The notes below the pieces were generated by a model. That model was given only the letters and a program-made list of their open reading frames with translations, was not told the DNA's origin and did not search any database. Shown here piece after piece: positions 2,236 to 3,212 of a DNA stretch of 40,781 nt. The translations under genes were made by a program, and so were the position numbers. The stretch comes from a virus: the UHGV virus genome UHGV-0177491. The stretch is one strand, 5' to 3'. Position 1 is the first letter of the stretch; each line of letters starts with the position of its first letter.

Positions 2236-2544
2236 ATGAACAGCGTGATGATTAATGATATCCCACTAATAGCTTGCGAGTTTAATGGTGAGCGTGTGGT
2301 TACATTTCAGCAGGTGGCTGTTGTGCATGGCGTTCCGTTAACTACAATTCGTGACAGCTACACAAGAAACTCAAGCTATTTTATTGATGGCGAGGATACT
2401 TATGTTATTGATTTTGATAAAAAAACGGCCTTCCCGTTTTTTGACATCCCCACTAGAGGGTTGAGGGTATTCACTGAATCCGGCTATTTGATGCTGGTTA
2501 AACCCCTGCGCGACGAGACGGCGAGAGAGGAGATGAAATCATGA
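2236..2544 (+). CDS. ORF6N-domain (antirepressor N-terminal-like) protein
   Basis: EFNGERVV...GLRVFTESGYLMLVK is about 75 percent identical to the N-terminus of the 32422..33192 protein. Likely start MNSVMINDIPL at 2236 with AGGA SD (track ORF begins at 2104). Confidence 0.6.
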   Translation: MNSVMINDIPLIACEFNGERVVTFQQVAVVHGVPLTTIRDSYTRNSSYFIDGEDTYVIDFDKKTAFPFFDIPTRGLRVFTESGYLMLVKPLRDETAREEMKS

Positions 2545-3212
2545 ACAGTTTAATAAGTACCGCAGAAGTAAAAACAATGTCTAGCCGTGAGATTGCGGAA
2601 CTGACAGGCAAACGGCATGACAATGTATTAAGAGATATTGATTTCATTCACTCAAATTTGAGTGAATCAAGTAAATCAGTAAGTTACAAGGGATATAACA
2701 ACCAATCGCAAAGAGAATGGCTTTTAACTAAGCGTGACACATTGCTGGTGGTTTCTGGTTACAGTGTCGAACTTCGTGCAAGGATTATCGATCGCTGGCA
2801 GGAACTGGAAGAGCAGGTGCGCAAAGCAGCGCTACCGGACTTCGCCAACCCAGCGGAAGCTGCCAGAGCATGGGCTAATGAGTATGAACAAAAGCTGATC
2901 GCACAGGAGAAACTATCAATCGCAGCGCCGAAAGCCGAGGTTTACGACCGCATCGTTGAGCGCAACAATCTTTATAACGCGTCGCAGGTGGCGCAGAAGT
3001 TCGGGCAATCCGCCGTGTGGCTGAACAAGCAGCTCGAGCAGTTTGGCGTGTACAACCGGTCTGTTAAGCGAGGTCGTGCCTTCCAGCAATGGTTTATCGA
3101 CAAGGGCTACGGAATCATGCGGGAGACAGAAAATGGCCGCTCTCAGGCGATGTTCTACGCCGAAGGGGAGATGTGGATTGTCGGCAAGCTGACTGATGAG
3201 GGTTTGATTTAA
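2541..3212 (+). CDS. Antirepressor-like protein (Rha-type N-terminal motif plus conserved Ant/KilAC-like C-terminal domain)
   Basis: N-terminal SSREIAELTGKRHDNVLRDI motif. C-terminal about 95 aa nearly identical to the C-terminus of the 30738..31427 protein. ATGA overlap with the upstream gene; GAGGAG SD. Confidence 0.7.
   Translation: MNSLISTAEVKTMSSREIAELTGKRHDNVLRDIDFIHSNLSESSKSVSYKGYNNQSQREWLLTKRDTLLVVSGYSVELRARIIDRWQELEEQVRKAALPDFANPAEAARAWANEYEQKLIAQEKLSIAAPKAEVYDRIVERNNLYNASQVAQKFGQSAVWLNKQLEQFGVYNRSVKRGRAFQQWFIDKGYGIMRETENGRSQAMFYAEGEMWIVGKLTDEGLI

Follow-up and report, generated by a model that had tools for sequence, protein, structure and literature searches.

The 40,781-nucleotide (nt) virus genome UHGV-0177491 (called the window below, meaning the whole stretch of DNA at its full length) carries two genes with an N-terminal Rha module and a C-terminal ANT/KilAC module, one at 2541-3212 on the plus strand and the other at 30738-31427 on the minus strand, whose 3' ends are nearly identical in inverted orientation. 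Our analysis suggests, with a probability that we put at roughly 0.7, that this near-identity is a patchwork produced by repeated short, nonreciprocal conversions among modular KilAC-family paralogues lying in both early arms of a P22-like phage devoid of cI and integrase. The two Rha-KilAC genes are accessory insertions in the two divergently transcribed early arms, pL on one side and pR/nin on the other, and since 2541-3212 reads with pL and 30738-31427 with the pR/nin operon, the KilAC subtype that they share (KilAC(B)) is necessarily inverted.

The inverted repeat has arms of 281 nt, at 2928-3208 (+) and 30742-31022 (-), that are 91% identical and lie 27,533 nt apart. The left arm codes for the KilAC(B) module in the 3' part of 2541-3212, and the right arm is the 3' part of 30738-31427 and is unchanged in seven further contigs. 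The match is far past chance (BLAST E = 8e-107 for an arm against an independent copy). These figures bear out a first-pass annotation of the window, according to which the last 280 bp or so of the two genes are near-identical and inverted; the extended identity on which that claim depended, between 2935-3212 and 30738-31015, is there. The perfect core, which had been put at about 97 bp, is also present and measures 95 nt, the longest exact match in the repeat (2931-3025 with 30925-31019).

Within the repeat, perfect blocks at 2931-3025 (95 nt), 3080-3103 (24 nt), and 3140-3187 (48 nt) alternate with blocks of 74 to 78% identity in which most third codon positions differ. Over their last 285 nt the two copies show 27 mismatches, 23 of them at third codon positions, and the codon differences are 22 synonymous and 4 nonsynonymous, implying that both copies are under purifying selection. 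The presence of such selection is the chief argument for supposing that the two 3' ends are alike only through shared ancestry and constraint, with no recent exchange, but the distribution of the synonymous differences makes this highly improbable. Synonymous sites differ at 0 of 31 positions in the core and at 13 of 18 in the next block, and the longest run of identical third positions, which is 31, indicates clustering with a permutation p value of 0.0008. Nor are the perfect blocks generally invariant DNA, since the outgroup Jersey-like phage genes are only 63 to 96% identical to both copies there; in the core, the outgroups are 73 to 88% identical once one misaligned sequence (L006) and one more distant sequence (L012) are set aside. 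Judged from these alignments, the patchwork bears the mark of repeated short tracts of gene conversion on a background of old divergence already saturated at synonymous sites.

One such tract is visible between siblings. The contig L039 (ERZ28620656) has flanks 99.2 to 99.9% identical to the window. Its copy of 2541-3212, which encodes protein P0002, agrees with the 30738 type at every one of the 14 variable sites in a 54-nt tract (3026-3079) and has 2541-type bases from 3104 on. The perfect tract has thereby grown to about 173 nt, and the identity of the repeat rises to 96%. A contiguous 14-site switch to the state of the paralogue, seen against siblings that are otherwise 99% identical, further argues against shared ancestry as the sole cause. 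The exact donor tract is found in all eight sequenced copies of 30738-31427 (that of the window and those of seven further contigs), and the neighbors of the L039 gene are parental, with kil and an ORF6N gene upstream and a 56-amino-acid (aa) gene and the Rad52/Erf gene downstream. As far as sequence can establish it, the L039 change is a nonreciprocal gene conversion between inverted paralogues, without inversion. It thus offers a single paralogue conversion event across opposite genome arms, visible between siblings from different metagenomes, and shows that inverted phage paralogues can evolve in concert without detectable inversion.

Inverted repeats do flank the 27.5-kb segment between the two genes, and the first-pass annotation had seen in them a substrate on which the annealing protein of the phage could invert some 27 kb. 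If the 281-nt repeat worked as a substrate for reciprocal recombination, this segment (or, equivalently, the 13-kb immunity and replication segment) would flip, giving two isomers. Recombination through RecA or an annealing protein is generally taken to need less homology than the perfect tract offers, which measures 95 nt in the window and about 173 nt in L039, and the L039 tract demonstrates that the two copies interact. To go by the gene coordinates, the flipped isomer would not be obviously lethal, in that every gene would still point the same way as an early promoter: behind pL, N, kil, and a hybrid 2541-type gene would come Q with the lysis and structural genes, and behind pR, O, P, nin, and a hybrid 30738-type gene the erf/ssb block, with both hybrids in frame. 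In the flipped form, however, Q would no longer lie about 9.5 kb behind pR but about 2.8 kb behind pL, a move likely to bring lysis forward and to be selected against, and annealing proteins are generally held to yield noncrossover patches rather than reciprocal exchange. The junctions recovered are also parental throughout. All seven contigs with a 2541-type gene have the same neighbors as L039, and in each of the 12 that carry the exact 30738 protein, NinH precedes the gene and Q follows it, so that only parental junctions, and not both orientations, were seen in the population represented by these assembled contigs. No inversion isomer occurs among these roughly 19 contig occurrences, which come from metagenome assemblies and one Logan run and comprise assembled contigs only, and no reciprocal hybrid was found in a collection of 15 billion proteins; in protein clustering, the 2541 protein and P0002 are singletons and the 30738 protein groups only with two truncated forms of itself. 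The best IMG/VR relative of 2541-3212 is 74% identical, so that this set could not serve to analyze the junctions. No recombinase or resolvase family that might act as an invertase was found among the Pfam-annotated genes of 1-13212 and 24738-40781, the rest of the window consisting of P22-type structural genes. Exact-pattern scans with a 34- to 39-nt piece of the perfect core gave no match in genome and viral contig collections; the same scan hit one metagenome contig, which ends inside the core, probably at a repeat-induced assembly break, and is uninformative on inversion. Reciprocal flipping is therefore quite improbable, and the exchange that is actually seen is nonreciprocal conversion.

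The conversion patches would most likely arise when single strands of one copy anneal to the other copy during replication, a reaction that could be promoted by host RecA or by the phage's own Erf/Rad52-type protein together with its single-strand-binding protein (SSB). The Erf/Rad52-type single-strand annealing protein is encoded at 3454-4161 (+) (Pfam Rad52_Rad22, E = 3.2e-26; PHROG 1097, Erf-like, E = 4.4e-129), and the SSB gene (4162-4677, +; PHROG match, E = 3.2e-60) follows directly. Annealing at the replication fork would leave short noncrossover patches and no inversion. New module combinations come from crossing over at the conserved linker or between gene starts that resemble each other. 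A search of the cassette that holds 2541-3212 for promoters and terminators of its own found no promoter-like site on the coding strand and nothing above shuffle expectation; since no such site was found, the 2541- and 30738-type genes probably depend on read-through from pL and pR for their expression. By family resemblance, the N-terminal module would serve in DNA binding or targeting, and the KilAC module would bind and neutralize a partner, for example, a resident prophage repressor, the target of classical Ant, or the RecA/SOS pathway, as demonstrated for Listeria AriS.

A few points weigh against this account of the genes. The L039 difference might in principle be an import from a third allele and not from the resident paralogue, although all eight sequenced 30738 copies carry exactly the L039 tract. 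A search by sequence for relatives of solved structure found none, and an AlphaFold2 model of 2541-3212 (mean pLDDT, the predicted local distance difference test score, of 77) gave no Foldseek match against the PDB with E <0.01; its weak matches are to winged-helix regulators. Finally, a role against homoimmune superinfection immunity is doubtful because the genes lie inside the pL and pR operons that a homoimmune repressor would shut off.

Conversion is accompanied by exchange of whole modules. Recent module exchange had been proposed in the first-pass annotation and is strongly supported by the L039 tract, by a hybrid gene in phage phiKp_30, and by combinations of the same C-terminal module with Bro-N and AntA. 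In phiKp_30, gene 340 of the nin region fuses residues 1 to 118 of 2541-3212 (100% aa and 98.4% nt identity) to the C-terminal part of the nin-region gene 32422-33192 (about 96% nt identity). The hybrid junction falls inside LPDFANPAEAARAWANEYEQK, the segment at 2832-2898 (+) that codes for the shared LPDFxNPAEAARAWANEYEQK linker, and upstream of gene 340 lies a 34-codon ORF6N remnant with a start like that of 32422-33192 and an end like that of 2236-2544, the ORF6N gene preceding 2541-3212 in the window. In other contigs, the linker and KilAC(B) stand behind Bro-N (P0086 and P0109) and KilAC(B) stands behind AntA (P0124), and one C-terminal module is thus joined to several N-terminal modules, as in domain shuffling. 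The window itself shows the same segments in pairs: the linker segment matches 32775-32841 in inverted orientation (87% identity, 29 nt exact), and the ORF6N segments at 2278-2523 and 32905-33150 form an inverted match of 246 nt (72%), in agreement with the earlier statement that both segments are common to 32422-33192. The Rha-type genes resemble one another over about 100 nt at their starts (mean identity, about 70%), and the starts of 2541-3212 and 30738-31427 form an inverted match of 109 nt (2530-2638 with 31330-31438; 80%). On these comparisons, exchange takes place at the linker and at gene starts, and together the phiKp_30 crossover within the 21-residue linker and the L039 tract pin down where and how modules swap.

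Related changes distinguish the siblings of the window at two other family loci. The gene 33475-33942 is missing in L033, L041, and L042, where the affected window stretch is 33414-33843, and the deletion junction lies inside a repeat of about 70 nt common to the 5' ends of 33475-33942 and 33189-33443; this polymorphism may represent insertion of a mobile nuclease or a repeat-mediated deletion. In L033 and L041, which are otherwise 99% identical to the window, the stretch 27725-28348 differs and encodes a 186-aa Rha protein with no ORF11CD3 match, and this difference is a further module swap in the family.

Another inverted match (2178-2210 with 31481-31513; 94%) is formed by a 33-nt element that precedes both Rha-KilAC loci. 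The element holds a 7-3-7 palindrome, TTTATCG-nnn-CGATAAA, and at the nin locus it adjoins a GC-rich hairpin at 31514-31527, GCCCCTTTCGGGGC. It may serve to bind a regulator, or it may be what is left of a terminator that travels with the gene.

Membership of the gene family was judged by the Pfam gathering scores of Rha (PF09669, 29.9), ORF6N (PF10543, 27.8), and ANT/KilAC (PF03374, 25.3). Five genes, those at 2236, 2541, 27841, 30738, and 32422, have a Rha or ORF6N N terminus above these scores, and an ANT/KilAC C terminus is present above the cutoff in 2541, 30738, and 32422. The protein of 2541-3212 (+) consists of a Rha module of one type (Rha(1); E = 1.2e-17, score 64.7), the LPDF..EYEQK linker, and KilAC(B) (E = 1.2e-9, score 38.9), and it matches PHROG 63, Ant (E = 2.2e-57). 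Its counterpart 30738-31427 (-), between ninH and Q, has a second type of Rha module (Rha(2); E = 3.9e-15, score 56.6), a PVPQT..EAL linker, and the same KilAC(B) (E = 3.8e-10, score 40.5). In 32422-33192 (-), in the nin region, ORF6N (E = 7.7e-11, score 42.6) is joined through the LPDF..EYEQK linker to KilAC of another subtype, KilAC(A) (E = 6.3e-33, score 113.8). The gene 27841-28359 (-), downstream of the lysis genes, combines Rha (E = 1.2e-23, score 83.9) with ORF11CD3 (E = 1e-23) in place of KilAC and matches the Rha-like PHROG 518 (E = 9.4e-80). The stand-alone ORF6N gene 2236-2544 (+) encodes 102 aa from the ATG at 2236 (E = 3.6e-10, score 40.4; gene callers extend it to 141 aa from a start at 2119) and has no C-terminal domain. 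It is 66% identical in aa to the N terminus of 32422-33192 over 96 aa, and an ORF6N gene is also called in sibling contigs.

Three further genes are fragments or divergent members. The 84-aa gene 33189-33443 (-) has only a Rha-like N-terminal stretch, a match of about 27 residues that stays below the cutoff (E = 1.4e-3, score 19.6), and its PHROG matches are 15709 (E = 1.5e-19) and 63 (E = 1e-7). The 155-aa gene 33475-33942 (-), a Rha N-terminal fragment gene absent from the first-pass list, begins with about 35 Rha-like aa (score 24.5, also below the cutoff) and ends in a weak DUF559/Vsr-like nuclease domain. The divergent gene 4734-5399 (+) opens in Rha-like fashion (MNELI...), continues with a PVPQT..EALRLA linker resembling that of 30738-31427, and ends in a C terminus that is unrelated; no Pfam domain was found in it, and it is recognized by PHROGs only (PHROG 1726, anti-repressor, E = 2.6e-23; PHROG 63, E = 8e-14). 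The first-pass count of at least six Rha/Ant/ORF6N-type genes thus holds for five, which Pfam confirms, and fails for 33189-33443, a subthreshold Rha fragment. The KilA-N-like gene that had been added to them does not stand up, the match in 11106-11762 being below threshold (E = 0.0064) and the protein fitting a PHROG labeled amidase, and it was excluded from the family count. Bro-N (PF02498) found no match in the scanned genes of the window, where the N termini are Rha or ORF6N. The genes are paralogous modular early genes of the known family of regulators that combine Rha, ORF6N, or Bro-N with ANT (KilAC).

The pair 2236-3212 appears from flank comparisons to be an insertion in the pL arm. 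The two-gene cassette, of which 2236-2544 is the first gene, spans 2146-3210 (+) between kil and the recombination genes, and its flanks are adjacent in HK97, Sf6, and HK75, where both pieces lie within 84 bp, and in about 2,100 E. coli prophage records, where a 1,601-nt query finds about 520 bp. By megablast, the cassette has no match in 5,426 complete E. coli genomes, in which 30738-31427 was likewise not found. The closest relatives of both Rha-KilAC(B) genes are a single gene of virulent Jersey-like Salmonella siphophages (Jersey, FSL SP-101, and PK1), with 60 to 77% protein identity and 78 to 87% nt identity that includes the region upstream of 30738-31427. In contrast, 32422-33192 is the Roi/Ant gene common in lambdoid prophages, those of Stx phages among them (its nt identity to roi/ant of Stx phages is about 96%), and the 90% cluster of its protein takes in copies from E. 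coli and Salmonella chromosomes.

The lineage recurs in at least seven assemblies. The exact 2541 and 30738 proteins were found only on phage-sized contigs (at most 40,955 bp), in several ENA assemblies and one Logan run, the 2541 protein on six contigs; none was found on a chromosome-sized contig. A tblastn search with 2541-3212 matched 1,110 of 50,697 phage records at 1,152 places, a mean of 1.04 per matching record, and by the same measure the window has two. The copy number that had struck the first-pass reader is thus uncommon, but it is not unique: some Klebsiella phages also list two, and expansion and shuffling of the Rha/ORF6N/KilAC family have already been described.

The phage appears to have lost the means of lysogeny. 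Between the cro-like gene (40129-40344) and N (437-709), neither an open reading frame for cI nor a tblastn remnant of it was found; a temperate relative with a 91%-identical cro has a 231-aa cI and a 98-aa cII at the same place. In the window, cII is reduced to 41 codons (39863-39988, -), and no integrase was found where the pL operon ends, in the stretch from 7078 to the tailspike gene. phiKp_30 is in the same state. The claim that the genome has no repressor is accordingly right for cI and too broad beyond it, as an Arc-like repressor gene (10730-10894, -) and the Cro-like gene remain. Lederbergviruses, the genus to which the phage belongs, are normally temperate, with cI, cII, and Cro (PMC11990801), and since the 2541 and 30738 proteins are confined to phage-sized contigs, the genome content makes this look like a nonlysogenizing, nonintegrating lineage.

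The region where cI would be expected (40577-40781 plus 1-77), between the cro-like gene and pL/N, holds a partial copy of the O gene, consisting of 174 nt 100% identical to 39044-39217 followed by a 22-bp iteron array, GGTGAATCTCCTGCACCACCCT (compare 39044-39290). The partial copy and its iterons make up a second origin-like array, which several metagenome contigs of independent origin also show. Because 22-bp repeats occur at both ends of the window and at first looked like plasmid iterons, a phage-plasmid had been considered; the idea was dropped, the repeats being lambda-type O-gene iterons and their second, partial copy. Upstream of O, 39581-39835 (-) encodes an 84-aa paralogue of the N-terminal helix-turn-helix domain of O, with 80% nt identity to the 5' 200 nt of O.

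Classical antirepressors are among the proteins that contain KilAC. The expansion might be adaptive, a battery directed against immunity or the SOS response on which a lineage without cI and integrase would depend: several antirepressor-like proteins with differing targeting modules would neutralize repressors of resident lambdoid prophages or the SOS/RecA pathway of the host, with recombination diversifying their specificities. On the evidence analyzed, we regard this as rather unlikely. It would fit the absence of cI and integrase and the truncation of cII, the recurrence of the lineage in at least seven assemblies and only on contigs of 41 kb or less, the presence of two complete Rha-KilAC paralogues where matching phage records average 1.04 places, and the absence of 2541-3212 and 30738-31427 from 5,426 E. 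coli genomes together with their relationship to genes of virulent Jersey-like phages. Furthermore, a KilAC domain has been shown to have anti-SOS activity in Listeria (PMC9043618). On the other side, a homoimmune repressor would silence the operons that contain the genes, phiKp_30, of the same cI-less group, manages with two such genes, and multicopy, shuffled members are common in temperate phages too. A broader version, in which a formerly temperate lineage would keep the battery against prophage repressors or SOS/RecA while the annealing protein reshuffles and homogenizes modules between the arms, with, as a rarer corollary, a viable 27.5-kb flip that places Q and the late genes under pL, is a speculative and improbable extension. 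If the functional reading is true, it suggests how a phage of temperate descent that no longer has its repressor deals with hosts that are lysogens. Gene conversion among paralogues in the two arms, which we prefer as the explanation of the near-identity, places the genes in no new category; they are new members and combinations in a well-described, much-shuffled family.

The family, its domain shuffling, and lambdoid mosaicism are textbook material, and Iyer, Koonin, and Aravind reportedly described these phage regulators as a domain-shuffling family in 2002 (as cited in PMC9043618). The window genes share the domain set and architecture of the Rha/Bro-N/KilA-N/ORF6N plus ANT(KilAC) regulators and add exact crossover points and a conversion caught between siblings. 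The gene 32422-33192 occupies the same nin position as Roi/Ant of HK022 and of Stx-converting phages and is about 96% identical in nt to the Stx2 phage genes, whereas 2541-3212 and 30738-31427 differ from Roi/Ant in their N-terminal modules and KilAC subtype and were not found in E. coli prophages. Jersey-like siphophages have one copy of a "putative DNA-binding protein / anti-repressor," where the window has two inverted copies in a P22-like genome. P22 Ant likewise has a KilAC-type C terminus and is the source of the family name, but it has a Bro-N N terminus and lies in immI with its own promoter under Mnt/Arc control; the window genes have Rha or ORF6N N termini, sit between kil and erf or in the nin region, and show no promoter-like site, and they thus have neither the Bro-N plus KilAC architecture nor the immI location of Ant. 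Like P22, the window has an Arc-like gene in an immI-like region, which neighbors other genes and not the Rha-KilAC genes. The baculovirus bro multigene family offers a parallel, in that several paralogues from this superfamily are scattered over one virus genome and serve as substrates for recombination, but in eukaryotic viruses and with other C-terminal regions. AriS of Listeria phage phi10403S also has two domains, KilAC at the C terminus and an N-terminal module that varies, being pRha in some AriS-like proteins; the likeness to the window proteins is one of architecture, AriS comes from a temperate phage of a Gram-positive host, and the anti-SOS activity is one demonstrated for AriS. In AriS-like proteins, the C-terminal KilAC is constant and the N terminus alternates among AntA/B, Bro-N, and pRha; in Listeria AriS, the KilAC domain suppresses the SOS response and the N-terminal domain regulates the phage (PMC9043618). 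Antirepressors that act in trans are known to operate between prophages (PMC3121763).

The window is the complete, circularly permuted 40,781-bp genome of a P22-like lambdoid podophage of the genus Lederbergvirus, with a P22-type structural module and lambdoid early-gene order. phiKp_30, Huey, Sf101, CUS-3, and Sf6 are 92 to 96% identical to it in nt across 30 to 60% of its length, in structural, lysis, and early genes; a search for literature on phiKp_30 found nothing. An assembly artifact or chimera was considered and ruled out because independent metagenome contigs match at 99 to 100% identity (L036/L040 and L037 at 100%) and three of them (L033, L035, and L036) read through the 40781-to-1 junction; both Rha-KilAC copies are present in several independent metagenome assemblies.

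The pL operon (about 220 to 7078, +) includes N (437-709, +), cIII (1860-1982, +), kil (1970-2122, +), the Erf/Rad52-type gene, and the SSB gene. The opposite block, read from 40344 down to 12359 (-), comprises the cro-like, cII, O, primase/helicase, nin, Q, lysis, terminase, and virion genes; in it the cro-like gene (40129-40344, -) encodes a helix-turn-helix protein, O with its iterons lies at 38776-39546 (-), and a 968-aa Toprim primase/helicase is encoded at 35762-38668 (-). The last of these has a weak precomputed LAGLIDADG_3 match, which hints at an intein or homing-endonuclease insertion. The stretch 1399-1904 is mosaic among siblings, the window having a DUF2528 gene (1419-1787) where L034 and L039 have another segment of about 1 kb, which in L039 encodes a 322-aa protein. 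The interval between the injection genes and the tailspike gene, the place of immI in P22, holds an HNH plus AP2 homing-endonuclease-like gene (9851-10354, +), the Arc-like ribbon-helix-helix gene (10730-10894, -), and two genes at 11106-12269 (+) that match PHROG 6095, "amidase," and PHROG 6067.

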